Positions 2,824 to 57,116 of a DNA stretch of 64,000 bases are shown piece after piece. Every line of letters begins with the position of its first letter. Position 1 is the first letter of the stretch. Position numbers and translations under genes: made by a program. Where the stretch lies: assembly GCA_903894565.1 (NCBI GenBank), contig CAITQP010000016.1, forward strand, positions 16,927 to 80,926, given 5' to 3'. The DNA is from an uncultured bacterium. Its GTDB lineage: Bacteria > Patescibacteriota > Minisyncoccia > Phycocordibacterales > UBA9973. A model generated the notes under the pieces. It ran no database searches and had not been told where the DNA came from. It saw nothing but the letters and a program-made list of their open reading frames with translations.

Positions 2824-2923
2824 GGAGGTGTTTCCGGAGGGGAGATGAGGCAGATTCCGGTCAGAACCGCGAGAGAGGTTGTTTTTTGGTCGTAAAAAAG
2901 ATAAGCTAAAGTGTTTTTACCAT

Positions 2924-2997
2924 TGAGGGATCGTCTAACGGTAGGACAGAGGCCTTTGAAGCCTTTAATCGGGGTTCGATTCCCTGTCCCTCAGCCA
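2924..2997 (+). tRNA. tRNA-Gln (anticodon TTG), CCA encoded
   Basis: Manual cloverleaf: acceptor TGAGGGA/TCCCTCA, anticodon stem GAGGC/GCCTT, loop CTTTGAA, T-loop TTCGATT, 3' GCCA. Confidence 0.8.
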
Positions 2998-3094
2998 ACA
3001 AGAGCGCGCACGAGACGCGTCAATGCTACGTTTCGTGAGTTTTGCATAGATTAAAATACGCAGTAGAGCGATATAATACAAGCTCAAATTAAAT

Positions 3095-3667
3095 ATGAAT
3101 GAAGTTATAAAGTATATAATCACAATGTTGGGCGGGACCGCACTTGTCGTTGGAGGACTTGCTTGGGTTTTGCGAAAACTAATCGATCAATTTTTTAATA
3201 ATAAAATTGAAAAATTTAAATATGAGCTTGAGAAGGAAAATACAAAATTTAGAATCACTTATGAGAGATTACATTTAGAAAGAGCAGAAATTATCAAAGA
3301 GACTTATAAAAAAATTGTACTCACATTTGATCTTTTTAGGTCGTATGTTAACCCTTTGCAGTTGGTTGGAGAGAAGCCCGAAAATGAAAAGAAAAAGGAA
3401 GCGGGTTTGGCATACAATGAATTTTATAAATTTTATGACGAAAACAGGATTTTCTTCGACGAGTCTCTCGCTGCTAAGATTGATAAATTAAGAGAAGCGC
3501 TTTGGGACGCGTGGATAAAGTTTCAGTTATCTAGGGACTTACGTGAGGGTAGCCATAGAGACGGACACGATGAATGGATGCAGGCATGGACCAAAGTTGA
3601 TAATGAGGTGCCTTTGATAAGAAACGAAATTGAAGCAGAATTTAGAAAGATTATTGGAATCGAGTAG
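3095..3667 (+). CDS. hypothetical membrane-anchored coiled-coil protein (AT-rich islet)
   Basis: N-terminal TM helix then K/E-rich helical region. Much lower GC than flanks. Immediately downstream of tRNA-Gln. Confidence 0.5.
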   Translation: MNEVIKYIITMLGGTALVVGGLAWVLRKLIDQFFNNKIEKFKYELEKENTKFRITYERLHLERAEIIKETYKKIVLTFDLFRSYVNPLQLVGEKPENEKKKEAGLAYNEFYKFYDENRIFFDESLAAKIDKLREALWDAWIKFQLSRDLREGSHRDGHDEWMQAWTKVDNEVPLIRNEIEAEFRKIIGIE

Positions 3668-8835: not shown

Positions 8836-11800
8836 ATGAAAAAAATAACTCTCCTCGCGCTTGGTATTTCTCTTGCAATTGTTTCTTCATTTTTTTTCTA
8901 CACTTCTCATACAACTCACGCTGATACAGCAACATTCACCGTTACGACGCTCGCCGACGATGTTGATGATGCTACCTGTACGGTGAGTTCATGTACGCTT
9001 CGTGAAGCAGTCGCTGCCGCAAGTCCTACACCTGGCGCGACGATAAACTTTGCATCCGGACTCACGGGTACCATTACGGTGAATGACTTACTTGGTTCGA
9101 TCACGATACCAAACAGTTTGAGTATCGTTGGTCCCGGTGCAAGCAAGCTCACAATTTCGGGCAACGACCTCATTCAAGTCATAGTGATTGCTTCAGCTGA
9201 CATCACTGCGACAATTAGCGGTGTGACCATTGCGCATGGTCAATCCCAGGGAGGTTCGGCTATATATAGTACTGGAATACTGACAGTCCATGATGTGACG
9301 TTTAAAAACAACAACGGAGGAGGCGGTGCAACTATTTCAAGTAGCGGCCCAAGTCTTACTGTAACAAACTGTATTTTTACGGGTAATACTTCAGGTGACG
9401 GTGGAGGTATCATTGCAAGTACCGGAACAGTCACGGTTACGAGTTCAGATTTCCTTGGGAATACGGCAAGTGATCAAGGAGGAGCGATTTATATCACAGG
9501 CGATGCAACACTTTCTGTGACCGATTCGACGTTCGACGCGAATGGCTCATCTTTGAATGGTGGCGCAATTTATGACGAAGCAGGAACTGTGCTCACTCTC
9601 ACACGAGATACCTTCCGTTCAAACATGTCGTACATGGGAAACGGAGGAGCTGTGTACAGTACTGGAGATGTGCATACAACGAATGGTTCGTTCTCGAACA
9701 ATAAATCGAGCGGGTACGGAGGCGCAATTGGAACGAACGGAGGTGATGTCACAACCGATGGCACAAACTTCATGACCAATGTGACGTCAGGTGACAACGG
9801 AGGTGCAATTTTTATCAACGCAAGTGGTCTCGGATCGGGGAGTAGTATTGTTGGCGGAACATATTCAAGTAATACTTCGAACTCATGTAACGGAGGAGCG
9901 ATCTTTAGTTCACTGACAACAACCATCAGTGTCTCGAACGCAAGGTTCGCAAAGAATACGGCTAATTGCAACGGAGCTGCACTCTACATTCAAGGAAACA
10001 GTAGTGTCTCAGGGAGTACATTTGAAGGCAATCGAGCATTTGAAAATGGAGGTGCTATTGCTTATGACAACGGAACAACACATACGATTGAAAGCAGTTC
10101 GTTTTTAAACAACACCGCTTTATTCAATGGAGGAGCCGTTTATCAAAATTCCGGCACATTAAGTGTCGCAACAAATACGACATTTACGGGTAATACGATC
10201 GGAACGACCAGCGGAGGAACAGGTGGTGCGATCGACGCACAAGGAGTGAATTTGAATATCGCAGAAGCAACGTTTACTGACAATCAGGCGGGGCTCGATG
10301 GCTGCGGAGGAGCGGTAAGTATCTTTTCAGATGCACATATTCACGACAGTACCTTTACAAACAATCATGGTATTGCGGGAGGGGCTGTGTGCACATTTAA
10401 TACGCATACGGTATTGATTGATGATTCAAGTTTTAGTCAAAACATTGCTCACAACGACGCTGGAGGTGCGATTTACCAAGATGCAGGAGATCTCACTGTT
10501 CACAGTTCAATCTTTAGAGAAAACCAAACTAGTGGCGTACATCGAGGAGGAGCAATTTTCGGTGGAGGAGATTCACTTACGATTACAGGAAGTGCGTTTA
10601 CTCATAATGCATCACAAGGAAGTTATGGTGGTGCGCTCTCTGTTGCGAGTTCATCTCTTGTTCTCAGTACTTCGTCACTTGTTGGAAATACAGCATCTGG
10701 CGGAAACGGAGGAGGAATTTTTCTGAACAATACGAGTAGCGCGTCAATTAGTGACACGACATTCTCGCAAAATAGTGCAAGTTACGGTGGCGGCCTTTCG
10801 ACCAATTCAAATGTTACGCTCACGAATACTACATTCGATGGAAATAATGCGTTATTGAGCGCGAATGTCGAGGTACTCGGAGGTACCGTTTCGGCTGGAA
10901 ATTCGATTTTTTCAAGCATCAATTCGTCAAATTGTAATACAGCAATTACTTCTCTTGGACACAATATTGAAACAGGAACTGATTGCGGACTGACCGATGT
11001 GTCAGACCATCAATCAACCAATCCTCATCTCGACCCAGAAGGTCCAAAATTTTCACCAGAGGGACCAACGTTCGGTGGTCTTCCATATTTGTTTACTGTT
11101 GCACTTACGCCGAGCTCTACGAGTGCTATCAACGGAGGTGCGGGTTGTAGTAGTGCAGATGAGCGTGGCATAGCGCGTGTCGGTACGTGTGATATCGGAG
11201 CGTACGAATATGATGCAAGTCATCCGCAAACTATTTCAACTCCGACTACATACAACACTCCAACGATCATGGTGACTCGTCTCGACGATCCGGTCGGAGG
11301 AACTTGTGTCTCTGGTACGGATTGTTCGCTCCGTCAGGCCGTCGCGTTTGCGATAGGCGGAGAGACGATTGGTTTTGATTCTTCGCAAACCGGAACGCTT
11401 ACGCTTGCTACTCCAATCACTATCGACAAAACAATTCATATTGCTGGATCAGGTCAAAATTTGATCACGCTTTCAGGTGGTGCGACTTCTCAAATTTTCT
11501 TGATTACATCTGATGGCAATCTCTCGCTCGACCACCTGACACTCGCGAATGGGTACGGCGGTTTGGTTGACGCTGGCGCGATTGATGCTGTCGGACCACT
11601 CACCACAAGTTTCGTTACATTCAGAGACAATATGGCACCAAGCGGTGAAGGTGGAGCTATCTATGGAGAATGTGACGTTGTTGGCAGAACTATTTCTCTT
11701 TCGAACACACTGTTCGACGGCAACTTTTCGCTTCTCGGTGGAGCGGTATATAACTGTGGGACAACATCTGATTTGAACGTACTCACTACCGCGAATGATA

Positions 11801-14208
11801 TCTTTGTAAACAACTTTGCTTCAACCGGAAGTGGAGGTGCTGTGTATACAATGAATAGCTCGCTCGACGTCACGAATTCGTTGCTCATAAACAACGCCTC
11901 AAACAACGAAGGAGGAGCAGTCTATGTTACCGCTACGAGTGTAGAGCCAGTGATTACAGTTACGAATTCTGAATTTGAAAACAATTGGTCTCACAATAGT
12001 GGTGGCGCATTTTCAAATGGGTTCAGTGCGCTTGTGCACGTTCACTTTACTGGAGGTTCTGTTTTTCGAGGAAACGTTGCAGAAAATGCCCCGGGTGGAG
12101 CAGTCAATTTGGTTGGCGCATATCTTGATGAAATTTCGAATGTTACGTTTACGGGAAATCAGTCTGCAACAAGTTATGGAGGTGCGATGAATTTGCAGGA
12201 TTTACTCAATGCATCAGTTGCGTTTGATGCCGTACATTTCGATAGTAATTTTGCAGGCAGTGTTGGAGGCGCGCTTCTCTTTTATTCAAGTAGCAATCTA
12301 AGCATTCAAAACGGAACTGAATTTACGGACAACAATGCGGCAAATGGTACTCCTGGAGGAGCAATGTATGTCCATGCAAATAATCTTGCAATTTCTGATG
12401 CTAGTTTTACGTACAATACATCGTGGGGAGAATCTGGTGGAGCAGTGTATATCGACAATACGCCGTACACAATTGATCAAAGTACGTTTACAGGAAATAA
12501 AGCGGCAGCTGGCGGATCAGGTGGAGCATTGTATATTTCAAACGATGGAGATGCCTTAAGCGGTGTGATTACGAATTCAATATTTGACGGCAATTCAACT
12601 ATGAGTGGAAGAGGAGGTGCCATCATGACGACCCTGGGTTCTGGTTCGACCACTATCACAGGATCAACGTTCCTCAACAATTACACATATGATGGTGGTG
12701 AGGGTGCCATTCGTAGTAGTGGTACTGGTCTCACGATTACCAACTCAACGTTTCAAGGAAACGCTGTATTTGACTCATCGGTTGGAGCTGTTGGCCATTA
12801 TGCTGGAAACTTGGTGCTCAGTGGAACGACATTCGCATACAATACGTCCGTTGGTTATGCTGGCGCGATATATGATGCTTCAAATGGAACAAGTACGGTA
12901 AAAAATACAACGTTCTATCGCAACTTCGCTCCCTTTGATGAAGCAGGAGCGTACTACCATGATGGAACTTCTGCTCTTACCGTAAACAACACAACATTCG
13001 CTGAAAACGTATCGAACTCGGAAGGTGGTGCCGGATTGTTTACCTACGCTCCGACGGTTGTAACAAACTCAATCTTTGCCGGTTCGCCACTTGCATCATG
13101 TCACGATGCGGGAAGTCATATCGATGCCGTGAATTCAATGTACAACGTTGATGACGCGAGCGGTTGTTTTGATGGAGAGAATCATAATCAGAATAATATA
13201 AATGGAGCGACTCTCTTTTCGAGTAATGGTCTTGCAATGGGCGGTGGCGAGACGCTAACGCTCGCACTTGCGATTCACTCACCAGCAATCGACGCCGGAA
13301 GCGACACAACATGTGAGATCACCGACCAAACAGGCCGAACACGTGCAGGCAATGGAGTAGCCTGTGATGCAGGAGCTGTTGAATCACATTACGATGTCGT
13401 TACAGAGACGCCAACACTTACGAGCCCAGCAAACGGAAGTTCATATGCACACACTGACTCAATGAGTATCTCGTTCAATCTCCCAGAAACCCCACTCGCA
13501 AATAGTATTGTTCTTACGTTTGCTCCAGCGAGCGGAGACACGATTACGATGCATCTTCGCGATGCAGAACCGAATCGCTTGAATACATTTTTATTGCCGA
13601 TCAGTGGCGGTATCACGACTGGTGTTACTGAAGTCGTTTCTTCAACTGCTGACAGTATTCCTGCTGGAACGTACATCGTAACATTGGCGTATCAAGATGC
13701 GAATGGCAATCCTCAAGCAACAGTAAGTGCGATGGGTGTCGTTGTCGCTGGTGCTGTCACGCACTATAGTGGTGGTGGCGGCGGAGGTGGAGGCGGAATT
13801 ATCATCAGCACGACCACTACTGATACTACGAAAAAGATCGTTGCTATTGATACAACAAAATCTACAAAGACTGATGCGGTCAAACCTATCGTAGTAGTAG
13901 GACTACCAGTAGGATTCCAATTCGCAAAAAATCTCAAACCACTTATGACGAGTAAAGATATCGTACAGTTGCAACTATTCCTGAATGCAAATGGATTTAT
14001 GGTTGCAACGAGCGGGCTCGGTTCGAAAGGGAAAGAAAGTCCATACTTCGGAGTAAAGACCAAGATCGCACTCGTCAAATTCCAAGAAGCATATGCCAAA
14101 GATATCCTTGTTCCACAAGGCTTGACCAAGGGTACTGGAAACCTCGGAACATTCACACGTAAGGTATTGAATGCGTGGATCGCTGGGGTACAGAAGGCGA
14201 CACAATAG
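8836..14208 (+). CDS. giant (1790 aa) secreted parallel beta-helix repeat protein, Pmp/adhesin-like, with C-terminal peptidoglycan-binding-like domain
   Basis: Signal/TM at N-terminus. Two beta-helix modules, each opened by a C-(S/T)-LR-(E/Q)-AVA cap (aa ~50 and ~830). Dozens of GGAI(Y/F) and F-x-x-N repeats. Poly-Gly linker (GGGGGGGGG) then a LQ-FLNANGF...FG-KT-AL-KFQ...GL-KGTG-LG-T segment resembling PG_binding_1. Confidence 0.8.
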   Translation: MKKITLLALGISLAIVSSFFFYTSHTTHADTATFTVTTLADDVDDATCTVSSCTLREAVAAASPTPGATINFASGLTGTITVNDLLGSITIPNSLSIVGPGASKLTISGNDLIQVIVIASADITATISGVTIAHGQSQGGSAIYSTGILTVHDVTFKNNNGGGGATISSSGPSLTVTNCIFTGNTSGDGGGIIASTGTVTVTSSDFLGNTASDQGGAIYITGDATLSVTDSTFDANGSSLNGGAIYDEAGTVLTLTRDTFRSNMSYMGNGGAVYSTGDVHTTNGSFSNNKSSGYGGAIGTNGGDVTTDGTNFMTNVTSGDNGGAIFINASGLGSGSSIVGGTYSSNTSNSCNGGAIFSSLTTTISVSNARFAKNTANCNGAALYIQGNSSVSGSTFEGNRAFENGGAIAYDNGTTHTIESSSFLNNTALFNGGAVYQNSGTLSVATNTTFTGNTIGTTSGGTGGAIDAQGVNLNIAEATFTDNQAGLDGCGGAVSIFSDAHIHDSTFTNNHGIAGGAVCTFNTHTVLIDDSSFSQNIAHNDAGGAIYQDAGDLTVHSSIFRENQTSGVHRGGAIFGGGDSLTITGSAFTHNASQGSYGGALSVASSSLVLSTSSLVGNTASGGNGGGIFLNNTSSASISDTTFSQNSASYGGGLSTNSNVTLTNTTFDGNNALLSANVEVLGGTVSAGNSIFSSINSSNCNTAITSLGHNIETGTDCGLTDVSDHQSTNPHLDPEGPKFSPEGPTFGGLPYLFTVALTPSSTSAINGGAGCSSADERGIARVGTCDIGAYEYDASHPQTISTPTTYNTPTIMVTRLDDPVGGTCVSGTDCSLRQAVAFAIGGETIGFDSSQTGTLTLATPITIDKTIHIAGSGQNLITLSGGATSQIFLITSDGNLSLDHLTLANGYGGLVDAGAIDAVGPLTTSFVTFRDNMAPSGEGGAIYGECDVVGRTISLSNTLFDGNFSLLGGAVYNCGTTSDLNVLTTANDIFVNNFASTGSGGAVYTMNSSLDVTNSLLINNASNNEGGAVYVTATSVEPVITVTNSEFENNWSHNSGGAFSNGFSALVHVHFTGGSVFRGNVAENAPGGAVNLVGAYLDEISNVTFTGNQSATSYGGAMNLQDLLNASVAFDAVHFDSNFAGSVGGALLFYSSSNLSIQNGTEFTDNNAANGTPGGAMYVHANNLAISDASFTYNTSWGESGGAVYIDNTPYTIDQSTFTGNKAAAGGSGGALYISNDGDALSGVITNSIFDGNSTMSGRGGAIMTTLGSGSTTITGSTFLNNYTYDGGEGAIRSSGTGLTITNSTFQGNAVFDSSVGAVGHYAGNLVLSGTTFAYNTSVGYAGAIYDASNGTSTVKNTTFYRNFAPFDEAGAYYHDGTSALTVNNTTFAENVSNSEGGAGLFTYAPTVVTNSIFAGSPLASCHDAGSHIDAVNSMYNVDDASGCFDGENHNQNNINGATLFSSNGLAMGGGETLTLALAIHSPAIDAGSDTTCEITDQTGRTRAGNGVACDAGAVESHYDVVTETPTLTSPANGSSYAHTDSMSISFNLPETPLANSIVLTFAPASGDTITMHLRDAEPNRLNTFLLPISGGITTGVTEVVSSTADSIPAGTYIVTLAYQDANGNPQATVSAMGVVVAGAVTHYSGGGGGGGGGIIISTTTTDTTKKIVAIDTTKSTKTDAVKPIVVVGLPVGFQFAKNLKPLMTSKDIVQLQLFLNANGFMVATSGLGSKGKESPYFGVKTKIALVKFQEAYAKDILVPQGLTKGTGNLGTFTRKVLNAWIAGVQKATQ

Positions 14209-43002: not shown

Positions 43003-44271
43003 ATGTCGTCAGTTTTCGAACAAGGAATGAATACGGGTCCGCTCTCAGAGAACAATGCTGAGAATATTTCTTTTTTGCGAGTTGAGAAAATTGCGAAAGA
43101 AATAAAAGAAAAATCATTTACTGATCCTGAAACTCGAGTACTTTTTGATCAATGGCTCGATGAGCGCGAAGCATGGTCTACCAAAGAAAATACTGTACGA
43201 TCACAGGTAATTGTTTGTATGGAACAAGCAGGTATTTTTGCCATGGCGGGTCAATACGAACAGGCACTTGAGTTCTTGCGTGGTGCGGATGATATTGCAT
43301 ATCAAGAGGGTGATGAGCTCAGCGATCTCTATGATCTTATTTTTAATATGGCAACGGAGATCAAGGAATTAGCTACAGCGAGTATTGAAAATGTTCGAGA
43401 AGAAGAATTTCAAGAGAACCTTGCTCCAGAAGTTTTTCTCACTCCTTCTCCGGCCGAAGGCAAGAAAATTCGAAAACTCAAAATAGGTAGTATTGATCTG
43501 CCGACCTCTCTCATTGTTGAGGAGGGACGTTTTCGTTTGAATGGTAAAGATACTGCTACGAACGAGGGAGTGATTATGTCCGGACGCGAGGCTATTACAG
43601 AGCGAGGAGGTATATATAAAATAAATCACTTCAATGTTACGCCCGGTCTTCTGAATGAAGATGGAACAAGCCTAGATGTGAAAAAGGCGCTTCTCAAAGA
43701 ACTAGAATCAAATTTGAAAATTCGTGTATCCGCGGGGAATGTTCGTACGGCGGCAATTTATGCAACCACATCGAATCCTGACGAGGTTACTCTTTTTCTT
43801 GAGAACGGCTACACCGCTGTCTCTCCTGATTCATTGGATGAAGAGACTCGTAGGGTGCTTAAAATTAGCAAGAACGAAGGAACAGTACTGTCTCGCGAAT
43901 TAAAACAACAGACGATGGAATGCGTGAGAATGGCAAAAGAGCTCGCTCTGCGAACGGAAGGTTTTCCGTTCGCAGGAATTACTGACGAAGCATATGTCTC
44001 ACTCAAAGAGATTGAATTTGATGATCCCGACCATATGTATTCGGTTGAGACAGATCCGCTTCTTGAAAAATTTGAGCGTGATGGCATGAAATTGATTCTA
44101 GCCAAAGATGATATTGATAGTCCGAATATGTACTTTTTGCCGAACGGGAACGAAGATTCTGATCGATCAGAAGAGTCCTTGCCCCCAAACTATATTTCAA
44201 TAAAAGACGATATGGACGACCTGCTTAAGAATTTCCTCACACTGTTTAAGGCGCGGTTTGGCAAAAAGTAA
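43003..44271 (+). CDS. hypothetical protein (422 aa, acidic, cytoplasmic)
   Basis: Long ORF with coding-like composition. No recognisable motif. Confidence 0.55.
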   Translation: MSSVFEQGMNTGPLSENNAENISFLRVEKIAKEIKEKSFTDPETRVLFDQWLDEREAWSTKENTVRSQVIVCMEQAGIFAMAGQYEQALEFLRGADDIAYQEGDELSDLYDLIFNMATEIKELATASIENVREEEFQENLAPEVFLTPSPAEGKKIRKLKIGSIDLPTSLIVEEGRFRLNGKDTATNEGVIMSGREAITERGGIYKINHFNVTPGLLNEDGTSLDVKKALLKELESNLKIRVSAGNVRTAAIYATTSNPDEVTLFLENGYTAVSPDSLDEETRRVLKISKNEGTVLSRELKQQTMECVRMAKELALRTEGFPFAGITDEAYVSLKEIEFDDPDHMYSVETDPLLEKFERDGMKLILAKDDIDSPNMYFLPNGNEDSDRSEESLPPNYISIKDDMDDLLKNFLTLFKARFGKK

Positions 44272-45998: not shown

Positions 45999-46069
45999 AA
46001 TTCTATAATTTTTCCGTCGTTTGTCAAAGTTTGCGTTTGGAATAAGTTATCCACCATTATCGCGCTTTG

Positions 46070-49643: not shown

Positions 49644-50939
49644 ATGAAATCATTTTTCAAAAAAATCATCACGATTATCCTTACACTTATTGCCAAAGGA
49701 ATTTTGTGGCGACATAATCCTCGCGTCATAGCTGTGACTGGCTCAGTAGGGAAAACAAGCACCAAAGATGCGATTTACACAGTGCTCAAAGGCCAAGGGA
49801 GCGTACGTCGCAGTGACAAGAGTTTCAACAGCGAGCTCGGTGTTCCACTCTCGATCATTGGTGCATCAAGCGGTTGGAACAATCCGTTTGCTTGGCTTGG
49901 AGTTATCGCAAGTGGTATTTTTCAAATTCTCGAACCACGTGGGAGCTATCCAAAAACACTCGTACTTGAAGTTGGGGCAGATCGCCCAGGTGATATAAGC
50001 TCAATTGCAAAGTGGATCAAGCCACATGTCGTTGTTATTACACGATTACCAGAAATTCCAGTGCACATTGAATTCTTTCCAACACTTGAGTCATTAATCG
50101 AAGAAAAGCTATCACTCGCGAAAGGACTTCGCAAAGAAGGCACGCTTGTTTTGAACGCGGATGATCATCGAGTACTCGCAGCAAAAGAAAAAATGCATGC
50201 AAAGACAGTCACGTACGGGTTGAATCCCGATGCAGATATTCGCGCAAGCAATCTGCAGTTGCTTGCTCCAGGAGAGATTTTTGCTGAAGGTGGTCTGACC
50301 TTTAAGCTCGAATTCGATGGCAAAAGTTTGCCAGTGACGCTTCCAAATATTTATTCTGAAACATTTGTTACGGTTGCACTTGCGGCACTCACTGTCGCAT
50401 ATGTCTCTGATGTGAATATGATTGCTGCGATCGGGGATCTCGCTCTGTATGAGACACCGCCAGGACGCGTACGATTGATCCCTGGTCTCAACGAGACGGT
50501 TTTGATTGATGATTCATACAACTCATCACCAACTGCCTGCGAAGCTGGACTTCACATGCTTCGTGATATTCCGTTTGGGAAACGTAAAATTGCGATGCTC
50601 GGAGATATGCTTGAGCTTGGTAAACATACCAATGATGCTCACATTGAAATCGGCCGTGTCGCCAAAGACTGCGCCGACGTTTTGATCACGGTCGGGCTAC
50701 GCGCAAAAGAATTTGCCGTCGGCGCCCGCAAATCCAAAATGAACGAAAAGAAAATCATCGAATGTGCTGACGCACACGAGGCAGCCGAAACATATGCAGA
50801 AATGCGCAAAGCAGGTGACATTGTCTACATCAAAGGATCACAAAGTATGCGTATGGAAAATGCCGTAAAAATGCTTATGGCCGAACCCGAGAAAGCAAGC
50901 AAGTTGCTCGTACGTCAGGAGACTGAGTGGGAAGGGTAG
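49644..50939 (+). CDS. murF: UDP-N-acetylmuramoyl-tripeptide--D-alanyl-D-alanine ligase
   Basis: P-loop AVTGSVGKTSTK, Mur ligase middle and C-terminal domains. Confidence 0.85.
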   Translation: MKSFFKKIITIILTLIAKGILWRHNPRVIAVTGSVGKTSTKDAIYTVLKGQGSVRRSDKSFNSELGVPLSIIGASSGWNNPFAWLGVIASGIFQILEPRGSYPKTLVLEVGADRPGDISSIAKWIKPHVVVITRLPEIPVHIEFFPTLESLIEEKLSLAKGLRKEGTLVLNADDHRVLAAKEKMHAKTVTYGLNPDADIRASNLQLLAPGEIFAEGGLTFKLEFDGKSLPVTLPNIYSETFVTVALAALTVAYVSDVNMIAAIGDLALYETPPGRVRLIPGLNETVLIDDSYNSSPTACEAGLHMLRDIPFGKRKIAMLGDMLELGKHTNDAHIEIGRVAKDCADVLITVGLRAKEFAVGARKSKMNEKKIIECADAHEAAETYAEMRKAGDIVYIKGSQSMRMENAVKMLMAEPEKASKLLVRQETEWEG

Positions 50940-50962
50940 TAGCCTCGGGTATCGTCGTGTAT

Positions 50963-50991
50963 TGACTATTTTCTATTATACGTGTTATAAT
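50963..50991 (+). promoter_or_regulatory. Near-consensus sigma70 promoter (TTGACT-N17-TATAAT)
   Basis: -35 at 50963..50968, -10 at 50986..50991, about 35 nt upstream of the 51027 ORF. Confidence 0.5.
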
Positions 50992-51026
50992 ATAAATAAT
51001 ATTCACGGGCACAGGCCTTTAAAAAT

Positions 51027-51299
51027 TTGGACATGAAAAAATTAACCATTTTTGCCTTATTAAGTGTAGGCACAAGTTGCTATGGTCAAGAAATATTAAA
51101 CGCAACGAAAGTAACTGATACAGTCTCAGTCGCTAAGGTGAGCGATTCGATGAGAATAGTGAACTATCAAAATGAAATAAAAAAGCTGAAAGCTCAAATC
51201 AATCAGAATGAGAAAACAATCAAGGCTCTTTTGATTCAAAAATCAGGCTTGCAATATCAGATTAGGAATCAGCCTAGTACACAACATTACGGGAGGTAG
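51027..51299 (+). CDS. small secreted coiled-coil protein
   Basis: Signal peptide then heptad-repeat region. Confidence 0.45.
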   Translation: MDMKKLTIFALLSVGTSCYGQEILNATKVTDTVSVAKVSDSMRIVNYQNEIKKLKAQINQNEKTIKALLIQKSGLQYQIRNQPSTQHYGR

Positions 51300-51375
51300 A
51301 TGTTCTAACAATCTCTGAACAATAAAAGCGCTGGAATAAAACCAGTGCTTTTTGTTTGTACAGTACAGAACGAAG

Positions 51376-51951
51376 TTAAAACATTCGTTGTCTATTTCTG
51401 CCGAGAAGTATTGTGAGCCCAATTCCGTAATTCATCACACAAATCCAAAGCGGGAAGATGATGAGTGAGAAGTTGAGTGTGCCGACAGCAAACGCTCCGA
51501 GTAGTCCGCCTGTACCACATATCATATATGCGCTGAATGTTTCGGTGCTTGGTTCTTTGTATGTTTTGATGACGGTGAGCATGCTTGCGAGCATATCAAT
51601 CGCGATGGTGATCACAATCGCGAAGAGTGGTTCGTTGGTCAGATACCAGAGCACGAGCCCGACGCCTGAAGCAACGAGCGCGAAGATATCGAGTCGAGAA
51701 GCACCACCCATGCCGTATTTGATAGAGAGTGCAAAAATGATGATGACGATGAGACAATCGATACCGGTTGTGATGAGTGACCATGTGCCACCTTTGGCAA
51801 ACTGAGCAAAGAAGGCGATCGTGAGGAGTACACTCCAGATGAACCATGTTGCGCGTTCTGGCTTCGTCTTAAGGCGAAAAATGTCGCTAATATACGGCAC
51901 GGCTGAAATCGTGATGAGGAGGCCCGAGGCGTAGCCGAGGAGTTCTTGCAT
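51376..51951 (-). CDS. hypothetical polytopic membrane protein
   Basis: 191 aa, six hydrophobic helices. Confidence 0.5.
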   Translation of the reverse strand: MQELLGYASGLLITISAVPYISDIFRLKTKPERATWFIWSVLLTIAFFAQFAKGGTWSLITTGIDCLIVIIIFALSIKYGMGGASRLDIFALVASGVGLVLWYLTNEPLFAIVITIAIDMLASMLTVIKTYKEPSTETFSAYMICGTGGLLGAFAVGTLNFSLIIFPLWICVMNYGIGLTILLGRNRQRMF

Positions 51952-52275
51952 AAGAATCTCAGTATACCAGGCATCTATTTGCTTGTCTTTACAAGAGGAT
52001 TACTTTGACATTTAGATACAATATCTTTGTAAATGGAAGTTTTTATGTAGAAACCCAAAAATACGCAAAGTGCATTGGGGTCATAGGTTCATTTAGCATG
52101 AACCAAAAAAATGAAATTGTACTTGCATCCAAATGGCTCGCAGGTACACGTGCGTACGCCCTAGAGGGTTATTATTACGCACGGGAACCTATATCATTAT
52201 ATGAAGTACACAGCATTCGCTTGTCTTTTTGTGTAAAAATGATTTCTGTTGTAGTCTAATCAAAACAATTGAAAA

Positions 52276-52668
52276 TTGATTAATCTGAAAGATTCTTCGA
52301 CTTGGCAATTGGTTCGTTTTGGATTGGTCGGACTTTCCGGCATTCTTTTGTATTATGGAATTTTATTTACACTAACTCAGTACTTTCACTTTTGGTATCT
52401 TTTGTCTGCGGTCATCGCGTACTGTATTTGTTTTGTCTGGAATTTTTTCTTACAAAAATTCTGGGCATTTAAAAATAAAGATCAAAAAAAGATTAAACGC
52501 CAAATGTTTTGGTACTCGGTAATGTATATAGCATTTTTTATTACAAATACTGTTGCGCTCTATGTGCTGGTGGATATGATTCACCTTTGGTACATATATG
52601 CTCAAATTATACTCACGGTTGTACTGAGTATAATTAGTTATTTTTCAACCAAACGAATTTTTGCCTAA
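52276..52668 (+). CDS. GtrA-family membrane protein (polysaccharide synthesis/flippase-associated)
   Basis: WQLVRFGLVGLSG...FFLQKFWAFKN; 4 TM. Confidence 0.65.
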   Translation: MINLKDSSTWQLVRFGLVGLSGILLYYGILFTLTQYFHFWYLLSAVIAYCICFVWNFFLQKFWAFKNKDQKKIKRQMFWYSVMYIAFFITNTVALYVLVDMIHLWYIYAQIILTVVLSIISYFSTKRIFA

Positions 52669-52695
52669 GGTCCTGCACGATGCAGGACCTTTTTG
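52668..52695 (+). terminator. Intrinsic terminator after gtrA-like gene
   Basis: AGGTCCTGCA-CGA-TGCAGGACCT hairpin plus TTTT. Confidence 0.65.
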
Positions 52696-52766
52696 TTATA
52701 TACTATTGACTTTTTTAAAATAAGTTATATTATGAATTTCATAAATTCATTCAAACTACATCGCAT

Positions 52767-53036
52767 ATGGAATTAGAAGATACTGTACCGGTTTCCACCG
52801 ACGACTACGTTTTACTTGGAAAACTTTTTGTAATGCTTACGGCTCGTAATGGGATGCCGTTTCCTGCAGAAATCCTGACTAAAAAGAAAAAAGAAATTGC
52901 GAGGAAGTTGAGTATAGACGATGGCAAAGTCGTAGCGTTGTACCAACTATTATTTACGTTGTCGGTGCAACTCCCACTGACAGCTGAGATTCAAAACCCA
53001 ATCGGTTTTGATCAGCATAAAAAAAGAGAGACATAA
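52767..53036 (+). CDS. small hypothetical protein (cassette 1)
   Basis: 89 aa. Own TTGACT promoter-like element upstream and hairpin terminator downstream. Confidence 0.4.
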   Translation: MELEDTVPVSTDDYVLLGKLFVMLTARNGMPFPAEILTKKKKEIARKLSIDDGKVVALYQLLFTLSVQLPLTAEIQNPIGFDQHKKRET

Positions 53037-53040
53037 CTCA

Positions 53041-53079
53041 AAAAGGAACAGAAGGGAACATACCCGCTGTTCCTTTTTT
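53041..53079 (+). terminator. Intrinsic terminator T1 (GGAACAG...CTGTTCC family)
   Basis: AAAAGGAACAGAAGGGAACATACCCGCTGTTCCTTTTTT. Paralogous to T2 at 53760. Confidence 0.6.
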
Positions 53080-53148
53080 GTATTTGACACTTTTGTATTT
53101 TATGATATATTAACAAACAAATAGTTTGTTGAAAAAAACGAATTTGAG

Positions 53149-53195
53149 AGCTTTGTTTAAATCCCAGAGACGCCCTAATCTATGGCCTTTGTGGG
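53149..53195 (+). promoter_or_regulatory. Perfect 11-bp inverted repeat (TTTAAATCCCA...TGGGATTTAAA) with 25-nt spacer upstream of the 53234 gene; adjacent AACAAAtagTTTGTT palindrome at 53106..53120
   Basis: Read directly from sequence. Possible operator or 5' UTR structure. Confidence 0.4.
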
Positions 53196-53233
53196 ATTTA
53201 AATAATATCTCTTAACTTTTAATACAAACAAAA

Positions 53234-53758
53234 ATGAAAAAAGTCGCCGTATTTCTTGTTGTGCTCCTGATGTTGGGGCTCGACTACACCGGAATTTATT
53301 ACGCATATCCGTATGCGATTCATCATGTTTCCGACCCAGTATTAAATTTCCTGGTCAGGGTTTTGATTGAATGTGTTGCCGTTCTCTGGGTCTGCCCAGT
53401 GACATCGTCTTTGTTCATCTATCTCACGCCGTATGGTAGAAGTTTTAATCTGAACCTCAGGCAAGAGCAGGAAAGAGAAAAAATCGCACGGAAAATATAT
53501 TTGTATACCGCGGCTTCTCTTATTGTAATTATAACCTGTCTGGTATTCCCGTGGACTTGGCATAATTTGGCCTACAGCACGAAAACTTTTATGGCGTCTT
53601 TCAATGAGAATACAGAGACCATTCAGTATCGTTTTTTACCTATTACGATCATTGGTTCGTCTGAAATGATGAAAACGTACGTCTCTCTTGTATGCAGTGG
53701 GATGCTTTCAGTAGCATTATTCGCTCGCGGTTACGTTAAGTTCAAAAAGAAACAATAA
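53234..53758 (+). CDS. hypothetical membrane protein (cassette 2)
   Basis: 174 aa, four hydrophobic helices. Confidence 0.45.
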   Translation: MKKVAVFLVVLLMLGLDYTGIYYAYPYAIHHVSDPVLNFLVRVLIECVAVLWVCPVTSSLFIYLTPYGRSFNLNLRQEQEREKIARKIYLYTAASLIVIITCLVFPWTWHNLAYSTKTFMASFNENTETIQYRFLPITIIGSSEMMKTYVSLVCSGMLSVALFARGYVKFKKKQ

Positions 53759-53759
53759 C

Positions 53760-53791
53760 AAAAGGAACAGGGACATACTCTGTTCCTTTTT
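53760..53791 (+). terminator. Intrinsic terminator T2 (paralog of T1)
   Basis: AAAAGGAACAGGGACATACTCTGTTCCTTTTT. Confidence 0.6.
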
Positions 53792-53880
53792 CTTTTGTGC
53801 AGTATTGTTGCAGGGGAAAAATTGACTAAATATATTTTGTGTACTATTTTAAATTTAAATCAAAAAACAAGGAGGTAAAA

Positions 53881-54189
53881 ATGGTTGGCACTGTAATCTT
53901 AATAAAAGAGTTAGACGCGTTGTACGGGGCATACCCTCACGTGAAGAATCTGTTCCCAGAGTTTCTTGAAAACTGGGGCTTGGTTGAAAAGACACCACAA
54001 TGGGCGAGGGCTAATATTGAGCGAGCGCTCAATGAACGTCAACCCGATTGGGGTGGGCTGAAAATCCTTTACCGAAAGGATTCAAATCTTAGGATTGCAG
54101 TTGTCCTTCGCGACCATCCAAATGCTGCATTCATCGATGCATGGGATGCGAGCACAGGGCAATCCTGCGAGGTTCCTGAGCTTGGGTAA
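53881..54189 (+). CDS. small hypothetical protein (cassette 3)
   Basis: Start at ATG after AAGGAGGT RBS. TTGACT promoter-like element at ~53808. Terminator 54209..54245. Confidence 0.45.
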   Translation: MVGTVILIKELDALYGAYPHVKNLFPEFLENWGLVEKTPQWARANIERALNERQPDWGGLKILYRKDSNLRIAVVLRDHPNAAFIDAWDASTGQSCEVPELG

Positions 54190-54273
54190 ATTCAGAAGGC
54201 AAAATTAAAAAGAGAAGTGGGAAACAAATTCCACTTCTCTTTTTGCATGATTAGATTGGACAACAAGTAACGT

Positions 54274-54301
54274 TGACAAAAACATATTTATATTTAAAAT
54301 A
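54274..54301 (+). promoter_or_regulatory. sigma70-like promoter copy A (TTGACA-N16-TAAAAT)
   Basis: 34-bp element 54271..54304 is 31/34 identical to 55521..55554. Confidence 0.5.
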
Positions 54302-54316
54302 TGCAAAACGATCATT

Positions 54317-54724
54317 ATGCCTATTATTCGTATTAGAAAGACAGCAAAACCTTGGGAGAAAGTAGAAGCCAACGATTCAAACGAAATGTACTTCTACCAA
54401 GCAATAGCCACCCGCTTTGAAAATGGTGACTGCCTTATCTGGGATGACAAACTCGGCTTAGAAGTTCGCCGACTCGTACCGGAGGAAGCCTTTGAGGATA
54501 CGGGTGACGGAAAACTTGAGTACGTCAATTTATTTTTCAATGGTATGGTGTCCACAAAAAGGAGGAATATAGGGGTTAAGCGCATCAAACTGAACCCGGC
54601 TATGGCTGATAAAGCCTTCCATCTCGACCTCGTTGAGCAACAAGGCTTTGCGCTTGAGCGATCAACCGTTTTTCCTGGCGAGTGCTATACGCTGAGATTT
54701 GTCGAAGAACTTCCTGAAGATTAA
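54317..54724 (+). CDS. small hypothetical protein (cassette 4)
   Basis: 135 aa. Hairpin terminator 54753..54776. Confidence 0.45.
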   Translation: MPIIRIRKTAKPWEKVEANDSNEMYFYQAIATRFENGDCLIWDDKLGLEVRRLVPEEAFEDTGDGKLEYVNLFFNGMVSTKRRNIGVKRIKLNPAMADKAFHLDLVEQQGFALERSTVFPGECYTLRFVEELPED

Positions 54725-54915
54725 GAAAAAATAGTATTAAACGCATTAAACACCCTCTATTCATTTAGGGGGTTTTGCTATTTATGTAGAATCTACGCGT
54801 GAGCCAGCTTGGTCGAAATTTGACAAATAAATTAATAATGTTAGATTAATTTATAAGAAGGCACAAAAAAGGGTAGGACCACGCCTGAGCAGTATTTCTC
54901 ATTAAAAATATTTTT

Positions 54916-55305
54916 ATGACTAGAAAATTAATTGCGCTCTGCGCCTTTTTGATTATTTGGGGCTCGACTTCAGCTCAAGATAAGATTTCTCAATCAAAGT
55001 TTAAGGAACTATTTGTGTTGATCAAAAAACACGGATTGGCCTCTACTGTGACAGCACACCTGACTGATACCACCATAGTACTTGGGAAATTGGACAGTGT
55101 TCGAATCTCGGCAGTTGAGGATACTGTCAAAAAGGATTCGACTCTAATTTTTAGACAAGACTTTATTATGGCAAGTATCTCTACTAAAAAAAACCGTGAC
55201 TTACTAGTAGAAGTCGAGGGTGGTTTATTTGGAAACATTCCATCGTATAAAGACGAACAGAGAGCGAAAAAAATGGTTACTCGTGTTTGTGCGATAATGA
55301 AGTAA
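54916..55305 (+). CDS. small secreted hypothetical protein (cassette 5)
   Basis: Signal peptide (LCAFLIIWGSTSA-QD), 129 aa. Confidence 0.45.
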   Translation: MTRKLIALCAFLIIWGSTSAQDKISQSKFKELFVLIKKHGLASTVTAHLTDTTIVLGKLDSVRISAVEDTVKKDSTLIFRQDFIMASISTKKNRDLLVEVEGGLFGNIPSYKDEQRAKKMVTRVCAIMK

Positions 55306-55431
55306 GGCAAAAACTAAAATAAACTATGTTGTACTTTAATTGATTTAATAATCATCACTGATATTTTTTTTCAGGGTGGTTATTTTTTTTGCTTAGAATG
55401 AATGGAAGGAAAATAATTTTTTTAAAAAAAC

Positions 55432-55473
55432 TGTGACCCACTGTAGCCGAAACTGGAACCTGATTCATACGCA
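55432..55473 (+). repeat. 42-bp direct repeat, copy 1 (TGTGACCCACTGTAGCCGAAACTGGAACCTGATTCATACGCA)
   Basis: 36/42 identical to copy 2 at 56075..56116. Five of six differences are C/T transitions. Confidence 0.7.
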
Positions 55474-55524
55474 GGTCAAGGACTTAGTGTCGTGACGCCA
55501 AGCTGTTGAGCCTAAATGATAATG

Positions 55525-55552
55525 TTGACAAAAATATATTTATATTTATAAT
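55525..55552 (+). promoter_or_regulatory. sigma70 consensus promoter copy B (TTGACA-N16-TATAAT)
   Basis: Duplicate of the 54271..54304 element, with a consensus -10. Confidence 0.55.
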
Positions 55553-55583
55553 ATAAAAAACAATCAAATTCAAACTGGAAAAC

Positions 55584-56030
55584 ATGAAGAACGACAACAA
55601 GTTATCTCTTTCTGAAATGATTGAGAACAGTACCATAGACGGGGCTTTTCATTTAGATACAGTCCCTGGAATAAACTCAATAGATGGTCTGAATAAAACA
55701 TTCCTGATGTTTTATGAGTATCCGAATCGGAGACAAATATTTATGGATCTCCTTTCCAAATCTGAGTGGGGTGGTTCCACTTTAATTTCCACGCTTAATC
55801 GCCCGAGTCTTCTCAGTGCACTTAGGTTTGGCGGAGTAGATTATTTAGTACAAGGCAAAACGTATATGGTGCCGAACAATTTGTTTACGGATATTAATTC
55901 CATAAACAGAACCATTGCAAAAAAATGGAAAGGTAAAATATATTTTTTTGACGATGTGCAGGATGAAGCAAACTCAATTATTCATGTTAGAGATTTAAAA
56001 TTGCTGCATGGAAAATTGCCGACAAATTAA
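55584..56030 (+). CDS. small hypothetical protein (cassette 6), flanked by 42-bp direct repeats
   Basis: 148 aa. Shares a short AFHLD-V motif with the 54317 gene product (possibly chance). Confidence 0.45.
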   Translation: MKNDNKLSLSEMIENSTIDGAFHLDTVPGINSIDGLNKTFLMFYEYPNRRQIFMDLLSKSEWGGSTLISTLNRPSLLSALRFGGVDYLVQGKTYMVPNNLFTDINSINRTIAKKWKGKIYFFDDVQDEANSIIHVRDLKLLHGKLPTN

Positions 56031-56074
56031 ACAGAACTACGGGGGACAAGAGGAAACTTTTGTTCCTTTTGTTT

Positions 56075-56116
56075 TTATAAAATTTGTGACCCATTGTAGC
56101 CGAAATTGGAATCAGA
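56075..56116 (+). repeat. 42-bp direct repeat, copy 2
   Basis: TGTGACCCATTGTAGCCGAAATTGGAATCAGATTTATATGCA. Confidence 0.7.
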
Positions 56117-56130
56117 TTTATATGCAATGT

Positions 56131-56167
56131 AATGATTTTTAAATAAAAATAAACCCGAGATTTCTCG
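56131..56167. terminator. Bidirectional intrinsic terminator
   Basis: ACCCGAGA-TT-TCTCGGGT hairpin flanked by an A-tract and a T-tract, between convergent genes. Confidence 0.65.
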
Positions 56168-56198
56168 GGTTTATTTCAAATAATTTTTAATTGATGAA

Positions 56199-56909
56199 CT
56201 AACGGTAACTTAATGTCTTGAAACTTTGCAATGGAAATGTGTTTTTTCCTGTAAGATCTACCAACTGATAGTAATACATTTTTCCTGGCAGTAAGTTATT
56301 CATGCCTCCTATCCCTTGATGAAACCCCTGAATATCTCCCGGGATGAGCTGACAGTTCAAGAGGAATGCCAAATTATCGGGGTCCGTACCAAATTTGACG
56401 CCCGCAATAAGATTAACCCCAGTTGCATCGCCGTTGTAAACACACATAACGCTCGCTGATGTTTGAGTAATGTCCTGAGCAACAATTCTCATTGTTTTGA
56501 AAACTATGTTTTCAATAGCTGCTTTAGCGGTGGTTAACTGGAGTGTATCTGAAGAAGTAATAATTTTGTTACCCTTTTCATTTACAACCCAGAAGTAGTA
56601 TTCCTTACCTGGCAGCATACCGTATAAATTTGCCTGGTACACGTTCGGAGGCATACCATTGTTCCACATGTTAGGGTTGGTACTGGTGTTGTATGTCATA
56701 GTCCATACCCCACGTTGTGTACCAGCATAAATAACAGTGGAACTGCCTTCCTCAACAGGGAGATTGTAAACAATTTGTATCTCGGCTTGTGTGCCTGAGA
56801 CCCTCCCGATTGCTACAGAGATTTTCTGGGCGCTTACTTTTGCTGAGCAAAAGAAGGACATCAATAATAGTGCTGTGGCGTACAGCTTAGCCGTCATGTT
56901 GTATTTCAT
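56199..56909 (-). CDS. secreted protein with two fibronectin type III-like domains
   Basis: Signal peptide. Two ~100-aa repeats each ending LPGKEYYFWVV / LLPGKMYYYQLV. Confidence 0.5.
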   Translation of the reverse strand: MKYNMTAKLYATALLLMSFFCSAKVSAQKISVAIGRVSGTQAEIQIVYNLPVEEGSSTVIYAGTQRGVWTMTYNTSTNPNMWNNGMPPNVYQANLYGMLPGKEYYFWVVNEKGNKIITSSDTLQLTTAKAAIENIVFKTMRIVAQDITQTSASVMCVYNGDATGVNLIAGVKFGTDPDNLAFLLNCQLIPGDIQGFHQGIGGMNNLLPGKMYYYQLVDLTGKNTFPLQSFKTLSYR

Positions 56910-57044
56910 AATCTAATTGTTAATGAGCCCCCTTGATTTAATGAACCTCTTCAATTACCACTATGGTCACTGAAGAGGCTCATTAAAAACACGAAAAACG
57001 ATTCTTTTTCATACTACAATAAATCCATAAATAGTCAAATTTTG

Positions 57045-57116
57045 TGACTCTACGGGGAATCGAACCCCGATTACTGCCTTGAGAAGGCGGTGTCCTAACC
57101 GTTAGACGATAGAGCC
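57045..57116 (-). tRNA. tRNA-Glu (anticodon CTC)
   Basis: Manual fold on minus strand: acceptor GGCTCTA/TAGAGTC, D-loop AACGGTTA, anticodon loop TTCTCAA, T-arm GGGG-TTCGATT-CCCC. One C.A mismatch in anticodon stem. No CCA encoded. Confidence 0.7.

Follow-up and report, generated by a model that had tools for sequence, protein, structure and literature searches.

How have six small genes of no recognisable family, each equipped with its own transcription signals, come to lie side by side between the housekeeping genes of a bacterial chromosome, and do the regulatory sequences repeated among them point to a dedicated machinery? The question is raised by an array at positions 52690-56200 of a 64,000-nt stretch of DNA from an uncultured bacterium (contig CAITQP010000016.1 of assembly GCA_903894565.1; in the following, the window means this whole stretch), whose flanks consist of dcw-cluster, tRNA and glycolysis genes. 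The original prediction, made from the letters of the window alone, saw in it a cassette array, which diversifies by duplicating regulatory shells around unrelated, effector-like small genes. Our own answer, to which we would give a probability of roughly 0.55, is that the array belongs to a tRNA-Glu-linked flexible island filled with moron-like, self-contained transcription units of orphan open reading frames (ORFs), the regulatory pieces of which were copied locally. A dedicated cassette machine is unsupported, because this copy of the island contains neither an integrase nor an att repeat nor a common junction site. The locus is thus of a familiar kind, an acquired accessory island, and mildly unusual in its locally copied regulatory parts.

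The genome represented by the window is that of a member of the Patescibacteria (Paceibacteria-like). The Mur-ligase protein encoded next to the island has a 96%-identical copy in the metagenome-assembled genome (MAG) ELA106 (locus L001 below) and copies of ~40-49% identity in Paceibacteria-type MAGs, for example of Yonathbacteria and Taylorbacteria. The contig from which the window is taken is an ENA scaffold of 87.5 kb.

The island and its six coding genes

The array is part of a hypervariable island, which extends from the stop codon of the Mur-ligase gene to the 3' end of a tRNA gene. The island, its borders and the six genes of the array, designated A to F, are as follows (aa, amino acids).

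49644..50939, + strand: Mur-ligase gene of the dcw cluster (Pfam Mur_ligase_M/C); its stop codon is the left border of the variable island
50940..57043: hypervariable island, 6.1 kb, from the Mur-ligase gene to tRNA-Glu(CUC)
52767-53036, + strand: ORF A, 89 aa, soluble, orphan
53234-53758, + strand: ORF B, 174 aa, orphan, membrane protein with 3-4 hydrophobic segments
53881-54189, + strand: ORF C, 102 aa, acidic, orphan; ATG behind AAGGAGG (116 aa if the upstream GTG is used)
54317-54724, + strand: ORF D, 135 aa, with one distant homologue, P0011
54916-55305, + strand: ORF E, 129 aa, basic, orphan; signal-peptide-like N-terminus MTRKLIALCAFLIIWGSTSA/Q, read from the sequence
55584-56030, + strand: ORF F, 148 aa, orphan
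57044..57116, - strand: tRNA-Glu(CUC), with its 3' end toward the island, which forms the right border

All six ORFs (89-174 aa) are present on the + strand as originally predicted, and they are real coding genes. Being non-overlapping and at least 89 aa long, they cover 68% of positions 52690-56200, while shuffled sequences (n = 1000) contained 0.14 such ORFs on average and never more than 2. A codon-frame model, for which 30 long core ORFs of the window served as training set, gives a positive score in the annotated frame alone, of six frames, for every one of them (0.05-0.15; core genes 0.26 +/- 0.09), and the gene caller of the source annotation also predicts all six. Coding constraint, the lack of which would have counted against the original prediction, is apparent in this frame test for the whole set and, for D, in the purifying selection described below.

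The AT-richness of the region, likewise part of the original prediction, is evident from a guanine-plus-cytosine (GC) content of 0.35-0.41 across 52-57 kb compared to ~0.45 elsewhere. At the level of single genes, A, B, E and F (0.36-0.41) lie below the core value of 0.46; C (0.485) and D (0.45) do not, so that composition does not mark these two as foreign. The island is also loosely packed, with a median intergenic spacer of 168 nt inside it and of 24 nt outside. Among the six array proteins, B is the sole membrane protein and E the only one with a signal-peptide-like N-terminus, the remainder looking soluble.

Orphan proteins and the single homologue of D

The six proteins are mutually unrelated, and the statement that they lack recognisable homology has stood up to database searches, apart from one distant homologue of D. 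No significant match to any of them was found in Pfam, NCBIfam, PHROGs (nothing below E = 0.01), PADLOC-DB (nothing below E = 0.03) or the PDB sequences; tblastn gave no match in 50,697 phage records or 72,556 plasmid records, and no match was obtained in IMG/VR peptide scans. With PADLOC silent, the toxin-like, defence-related or otherwise effector-like function once suggested for these genes has gained no support. All six form singleton clusters at 90% identity in a collection of 15 billion proteins. For A, B, C and E, the searches comprised this cluster look-up, the profile libraries, the PDB, tblastn against phages and plasmids, and the IMG/VR peptide scans. A search with F returned the self match alone among 5.8 billion clustered proteins, and an exhaustive search of 1.84 billion representatives with D yielded P0011 (138 aa, 46% identity, E = 9e-25) as the only true homologue; further D homologues were not present in JGI metagenome and IMG/VR scans. 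Four giant proteins, which also appeared as homologues of D (P0012-P0015, E values down to 4e-15), were rejected as spurious, as they are internally repetitive or of the tape-measure type and matched one short stretch repeatedly.

The comparison of D with P0011 is informative in two respects. Differences at codon positions 1, 2 and 3 amount to 36%, 37% and 64%, corresponding to a non-synonymous divergence (dN) of 0.51 and a saturated synonymous divergence (dS), which argues for purifying selection on D as a real protein. The P0011 gene lies on a contig of 586 bp (L092) and has its own TTGACA-N16-TAACAT site, not homologous to the D promoter; the terminator behind it is homologous to that of D (~78% mean column identity over 76 aligned columns). 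Gene D and its terminator thus stay together as a module, combined with different promoters. Structure prediction gave unusable models, with AlphaFold2 confidence scores (predicted local distance difference test, pLDDT) of 35 for D, from a two-sequence alignment, and 39 for F, from the single sequence.

Predicted transcription signals

Each of the six ORFs is preceded by a TTGAC(A/T)-N16/17-TAnnnT site, which scores 9 to 12 of 12 against the sigma-70 consensus, and followed by a GC-stem hairpin with a T run (fold z from -1.9 for E to -6.2 for C), in agreement with the original prediction of one promoter and one intrinsic terminator per gene. These signals, together with the repeats treated in the next section, are listed in their order along the array.

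52706..52733, + strand: promoter-like site of unit A, TTGACT-16-TATTAT, 10/12
53041..53079, + strand: terminator of A, -19.5 kcal/mol, z = -5.4, paralogous to the terminator of B
53084..53111, + strand: promoter-like site of unit B, TTGACA-16-TATATT, TG-extended, 11/12
53144..53215, + strand: long hairpin in the B leader (leader 53112-53233, 122 nt), -35.3 kcal/mol, z = -6.97
53760..53790, + strand: terminator of B, paralogous to the terminator of A
53822..53850, + strand: promoter-like site of unit C, TTGACT-17-TATTTT, 9/12
54206..54244, + strand: terminator of C, perfect stem of 16-17 pairs, -22.1 kcal/mol, z = -6.2
54268..54314, + strand: predicted promoter of D, TTGACA-16-TAAAAT at 54273, 11/12; copy 1 of the 47-nt promoter repeat
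54737..54783, + strand: terminator block of D, hairpin at 54752-54773, conserved behind the D homologue on contig L092
54820..54847, + strand: promoter-like site of unit E, TTGACA-16-TAGATT, TG-extended, 10/12
55347..55392, + strand: terminator of E, hairpin and T8 run, z = -1.9, the weakest of the set
55419..55473, + strand: 55-nt direct repeat, copy 1, just downstream of the E terminator
55520..55566, + strand: predicted promoter of F, perfect TTGACA-16-TATAAT at 55525, 12/12; copy 2 of the 47-nt repeat
56041..56068, + strand: terminator of F, its 3' arm TGTTCCTTTT in common with the terminators of A and B
56072..56126, + strand: 55-nt direct repeat, copy 2, just downstream of the F terminator

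Some caution is needed with the promoter counts, as at a threshold of 9/12 the 26 sites found in 50-59 kb are no excess over shuffles (22.2 +/- 4.1). The clustering of high-scoring sites is non-random: 6 of the 19 sites of the whole window (both strands) with a score of at least 10/12 fall in the island, each of them on the coding strand and directly upstream of an ORF. Terminator hairpins are about twice as frequent in the region as in shuffles (15 vs 7.2 +/- 2.8).

The manner in which the array genes appear to be expressed deviates from that of the core genes. A Shine-Dalgarno-like motif precedes 3 of 57 core genes, and in 13 of the 57 the start codon follows the end of a TATACT/TATAAT box at a distance of 6-10 nt (background rate 2.5%), a placement which suggests that leaderless mRNAs may be widespread in this organism. 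None of the six array genes has a -10 box at this distance; they have full -35/-10 promoter-like sites and leaders of roughly 10 to 120 nt, and C is the sole one with a consensus Shine-Dalgarno motif (AAGGAGG). Taken together with the low GC and the weak codon scores, this non-core style of expression fits acquired DNA.

The hairpin in the leader of B, which is of high stability, is situated between the B promoter and the start codon and has perfect 11-nt arms TTTAAATCCCA/TGGGATTTAAA. No Rfam match was obtained for it; it may act as an attenuator or other regulatory leader or as a palindrome bound by a protein, or it may simply be a small inserted palindrome. An Rfam scan of the entire island (E <= 10) returned only tRNAs, besides chance-level matches on terminator hairpins.

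Repeated regulatory segments

An all-against-all comparison of the intergenic regions of the island revealed exactly three significant paralogous pairs; the original description of unrelated genes with paralogous regulatory parts is supported to this extent. The promoters of D and F are paralogous over 47 nt (54268-54314 vs 55520-55566; 41/47 identical, 87%; z = 24.8), which extends the 34-bp element first noticed, and the F copy is indeed a perfect TTGACA-N16-TATAAT. The terminators of A and B (z = 7.2) have a common core AAGGAACAG...TGTTCCTT, found nowhere else in the window, the 3' arm of which recurs in the terminator of F, as noted in the list. The third pair is a direct repeat, which had been given as 42 bp and in fact measures 55 nt (46/55 identical, 84%; z = 18.1). 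It brackets the 653-bp F unit, as had been proposed; however, the copies lie behind the terminators of both E and F, so that an equally good reading takes the repeat as a 3' flank which these two units have in common.

Beyond these pairs, TTGACAAA is present in the promoters of D, E and F, and no motif common to all unit junctions was found. Neither the 47-nt nor the 55-nt repeat has a third copy in the window (shuffles gave 0 matches), and no further copy of the 55-nt repeat was detected in 91 related loci, in IMG/VR or in JGI metagenomes. The search for more copies of the regulatory repeats, recommended in the original prediction, was without result for all of them in the islands of relatives and in both of these collections.

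Several identities were considered for the 55-nt repeat and rejected. A degraded tRNA or att site is contradicted by alignments to all four tRNAs, which are no better than those of shuffles, the sole exception being a 12-nt A/T-rich tRNA match of one copy (p about 0.04). A structured RNA or an attC site does not agree with fold z values of -0.1 to +0.9 on both strands, and a coding remnant does not agree with the two minus-strand frames, where differences counted by eye are 3 synonymous vs 6 non-synonymous in one and 0 vs 8 in the other. Of the nine positions at which copy 2 differs from copy 1 in the alignment, six are C-to-T changes, as expected for unconstrained drift.

Variability at the tRNA-Glu end

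Alignment to related genomes, also recommended at the outset, gave a clear picture, in which the six-gene region is absent from L001 and from L083 (GROS21-1 samples), although the flanks of both have about 80-90% DNA identity to the window. In L001, DNA homology of 82-86% reaches up to 50939, the stop of the Mur-ligase gene, and resumes from 57042 at the 3' end of tRNA-Glu; between these borders there are 2.4 kb of unrelated genes (a signal-peptide-like ORF, a 262-aa ORF, a LysE-type transporter and a fragment) instead of the 6.1 kb of the window. In L083, colinearity also stops at the Mur-ligase stop (50939/50938), and the island contains other ORFs, two of them with signal-peptide-like N-termini. 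The membrane protein encoded at 51376, which is 92% identical to its L083 counterpart and absent from L001, is the only island protein of the window with a relative in any fetched locus; beyond it, the L083 island has nothing in common with that of the window. The GtrA-like gene upstream of the array is absent from both relatives.

The window, L001, L094 and the short contigs L097 and L101 diverge exactly at the 3' end of this tRNA, homology beginning at 57042-57052, and at least 5 different sequences adjoin it in related contigs. In L094 and L095, found as contigs with an identical glutaredoxin (GROS21-1 samples), a 561-aa large serine recombinase (Resolvase and Recombinase domains; L094 7084-8769, L095 8188-9873) is placed against tRNA-Glu in such a way that the gene ends inside the tRNA, the 3' half of which forms, as its reverse complement, the last 19 codons. 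The adjoining ~9 kb are occupied by small cargo ORFs (DUF4145, bPH_2/SHOCT and unassigned ones), with an rve-type insertion sequence at the contig end. A candidate far-end site of the L094 element, GTGACTCTACG (11 nt, L094 894-904), is at chance level, and no protein is common to the window island and this element. The ORF fragment beside tRNA-Glu in L001 resembles a serine-recombinase remnant weakly (E = 0.027, single comparison), and the stronger tblastn match is tRNA DNA read in another frame.

The islands of the relatives likewise contain small ORFs flanked by comparable TTGACT-N16/17-TATAAT sites and terminators, and the monocistronic style thus seems to be a property of the locus and not of one genome. 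No regulatory sequence common to the islands of different genomes was found.

A side observation concerns the exported proteins of this locus. Signal-peptide-like starts ending in A-Q or G-Q (SAQ, GAQ, FAQ, IAQ, YGQ) occur in many island proteins of all three genomes: in the window in E, in the product of gene G upstream of tRNA-Glu and in that of the ORF at 51027, in L083 at 70-537, 710-1519 and 2851-3384, and in L001 at 11359-11919. Such endings point to a possible common style of export or cleavage for the variable secreted proteins of the locus.

Origin of the array

On the reading which we favour, the segment between the Mur-ligase stop and the 3' end of tRNA-Glu would be a hotspot of the genus, where foreign DNA inserts and is replaced, and the array genes would be lineage-specific orphans acting like phage 'morons' outside a phage. 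This reading builds on what is established at the sequence level, namely the anatomy of the locus with its repeats, its variability, and the findings that the ORFs are coding and that D and F are orphans. It adds to this that the units would have been acquired horizontally and assembled piecemeal and would be transcribed independently. In each unit, a single ORF would be enclosed by a near-consensus sigma-70 promoter and an intrinsic terminator and expressed from a leadered mRNA; with these signals of its own, the unit could be expressed and would be insulated wherever it lands, independent of neighbours. The repeated promoter (D, F), the repeated terminator (A, B and partly F) and the 55-nt segment (E, F) would be local copies of regulatory DNA, which may have arisen by short-range duplication or recombination during the addition or exchange of units, rather than sites of a dedicated recombination machine. 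As to function, an accessory role at the envelope or at the interface with a host or phage might be guessed from the membrane protein B, the secreted-looking products of E and G and the neighbouring GtrA-like gene.

A number of observations weigh against this reading. No integrase, transposase or phage gene was found in this copy of the island, nor a partial tRNA-Glu copy or any other att-like repeat delimiting it: the best match obtained with tRNA-Glu and its flank within 50940-57020 spans 11 nt, which is chance level. Pfam searches within +/- 8 kb of the array revealed no recombinase, and an IntI-type tyrosine recombinase is likewise absent within ~8 kb on either side. No donor lineage has been identified, and the GC of C and D is core-like. 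The promoter sites and terminators are consensus-level predictions throughout, and A, B, C and E are classed as orphans on the basis of weaker searches than D and F. Since the relatives, at ~85% identity, are different species, the differences may represent loss there as much as gain here, and two other assemblies of the locus, 100% identical to the window, offer no strain-level polymorphism of single units.

The array could, as a possible but rather doubtful alternative, be the decayed remnant of one integrative element, or of the accessory or early region of a prophage, inserted at tRNA-Glu via a serine recombinase, with subsequent loss of the recombinase and the ends; the repeated signals would then be the element's own. 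An intact serine-recombinase element at the same tRNA end in L094/L095 speaks for such a history, as do the single orientation of all six genes, the families into which promoters and terminators fall, and a leadered architecture, with a Shine-Dalgarno motif on C, that is foreign to the core genome. Reiterated near-consensus promoters are, moreover, typical of phage early regions. Nevertheless, the array has no protein in common with the L094/L095 element, and none with phages, plasmids or IMG/VR, neither a recombinase remnant nor an att repeat is left, the range of gene GC from 0.36 to 0.485 suggests more than one source, and the promoter of the D homologue is non-homologous to that of D.

We consider it improbable that the array is a dedicated cassette system, in which single-gene units are captured, shuffled or duplicated by recombination at repeated shells such as the 55-nt repeat, possibly with a recombinase acting in trans. 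What invites this explanation is the repeat behind the E and F terminators, which encloses the F unit, the composite nature of F, which shares its promoter with D, a terminator arm with A and B and the 3' flank with E, and the recurrence of D with its terminator as a module elsewhere. Yet the repeats are only pairwise, of 84-87% identity, and belong to three families with no motif at all junctions; the 55-nt repeat lacks significant secondary structure on either strand, differs between its copies mostly by C-to-T changes that look like unconstrained drift, and has no further copy in any of the collections searched; and the neighbourhood of +/- 8 kb contains no recombinase. The diversification mechanism put forward in the original prediction is hence not borne out. 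A more sceptical view, that the small ORFs are not genes at all and represent decaying non-coding or pseudogenised DNA with signals due to AT-rich composition, appears very improbable to us. Five of the six ORFs have no detected homologue, the models of D and F are very poor, promoters at the 9/12 threshold are not more numerous than in shuffles, and codon scores are low relative to core genes; but so many long ORFs on one strand are hardly expected (0.14), the correct frame alone is positive in all six, the conservation of D is apparent from 46% identity to its homologue, third codon positions being saturated, the signals are precisely placed around each ORF, and the gene caller of the source annotation predicts them all.

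Relation to known systems

Morons are defined by their own promoter and terminator, by deviant GC and by occurring in one genome while missing from its relatives (PMC3594210). With phage morons of the HK97/HK022 type, the array shares single genes with a predicted promoter and terminator of their own, products which are mutually unrelated and mostly of unknown function, and the status of extra DNA with respect to colinear relatives, from which it is absent (L001, L083); the composition deviates in A, B, E and F (GC 0.36-0.41 vs 0.46), not in C and D. Morons, however, are inserted between conserved genes of a phage or prophage, whereas the units described here stand in tandem in a chromosomal island of a Patescibacteria genome and have no phage backbone (PHROGs, INPHARED and IMG/VR were empty). 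They are for this reason described as working like morons and not as members of the class.

With tRNA-linked integrative islands, the locus has in common that it adjoins the 3' end of a tRNA (57043/57044), that its GC is atypical and its content varies among relatives, and that a recombinase-bearing element occupies the same site in L094/L095. It differs in lacking a recombinase, a flanking direct repeat of the tRNA end and mobility genes in the window copy, and in having the stop codon of a gene, rather than an att site, as its left border; the window copy can at most be regarded as an island of this type that has been degraded or secondarily remodelled. Integron cassette arrays are similar in that small, mutually unrelated ORFs of one orientation follow each other in tandem, some of them separated by repeats. 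They differ in that the array has no IntI, attI or Pc and no attC-like imperfect palindrome after each gene, its junction hairpins being GC-stem and T-run terminators, and in that cassettes are typically promoterless, whereas each ORF of the array has a promoter-like site.

To our knowledge, a strictly monocistronic layout with strong promoters and terminators and copied regulatory segments is not a described hallmark of flexible islands. In other respects, the locus resembles flexible islands at conserved hotspots, being a fixed spot between core genes with lineage-specific gene sets and many hypothetical, membrane or secreted proteins, and genomic islands have been reported to be common in Patescibacteria (PMC12455944).

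Neighbouring genes and further variable sites

Outside the array, the island contains the following features.

50962-50991: promoter-like site of the ORF at 51027, 11/12
51027..51299, + strand: small ORF, 90 aa, signal-peptide-like N-terminus, singleton cluster, replaced in relatives
51376..51951, - strand: polytopic membrane protein, 191 aa, with a core-like TATACT box 9 nt before the ATG
52276..52668, + strand: GtrA-like membrane protein (Pfam GtrA_DPMS_TM, 1.3e-22), TTG start, GC 0.33
52667-52691: strong terminator behind the GtrA-like gene
56147..56176: perfect 14-bp palindromic hairpin with A and T runs on either side, between the array and gene G, z = -4.2
56199..56909, - strand: ORF G, 236 aa, the last island gene before the tRNA, signal-peptide-like N-terminus

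The position of the array between the GtrA-like gene and the tRNA cluster had been recognised correctly; gene G, in front of the tRNA, had been missed, and the GtrA-like gene itself forms part of the variable island. The product of G has a weak similarity to FN3 and purple-acid-phosphatase N-terminal domains (Pfam Pur_ac_phosph_N, 1.7e-7), and the hairpin at 56147..56176 is probably a bidirectional terminator between the array and this gene. In spite of its full-length Pfam match, the GtrA-like gene is missing from the gene calls of the source assemblies, and an 84-aa ORF with a TTG start (52005-52259, + strand) lies in the 324-nt gap just upstream of it, also inside the variable island.

Further variable sites were noticed in the surroundings. 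Variation is also seen at a second spot, on the 3' side of tRNA-Arg(CCU), where the window (57601/57602) has nothing, L001 (14296-14983) has a 176-aa ORF with weak LPD3 similarity and L094 (9266-10290) a 300-aa DUF3800 gene. In addition, a Fic gene is present in front of rpiB in L094 (14770-15318) and missing from the window. Between greA and a class-II tRNA synthetase gene (Asp/Lys/Asn-type), the window contains a 422-aa ORF (43003-44271, + strand) with no Pfam match and with a TATACT box 7 nt before its ATG; forming a singleton cluster and being absent from L001 and L083, where 42956 is joined directly to 44281, it is another lineage-specific insertion. Conversely, ~490 bp of L001 (5914-6401) between the tRNA-synthetase gene and mraZ are missing in the window (46031-46044), a further small indel by which these two genomes differ.

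Implications

The locus reveals no new mechanism. It does provide candidates for strong promoters and terminators in a phylum for which genetic tools are almost lacking. A bolder proposal, which we regard as a long shot, is that accessory genes of these Patescibacteria may move around as minimal autonomous modules, each made up of a promoter, a single ORF, a terminator and sometimes a short 3' flank. The tRNA-Glu hotspot would take up such modules in tandem, perhaps through a serine recombinase acting in trans, and new modules would be built from the regulatory parts of neighbours, as F might have been from a promoter of the D family, a terminator of the A/B type and the flank of E. If this were true, the system would be a promoter-carrying analogue of the integron cassette platform and would provide an episymbiotic lifestyle with orphan proteins for the cell surface and the cell interior. 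The genomes of Patescibacteria are very small, and that one of them spends space on six orphan genes, widely spaced and each under strong signals of its own, suggests that these are of selective value. The island is a clean, bounded example of gene uptake and expression in small genomes, and its two borders define a hotspot for comparison among populations.

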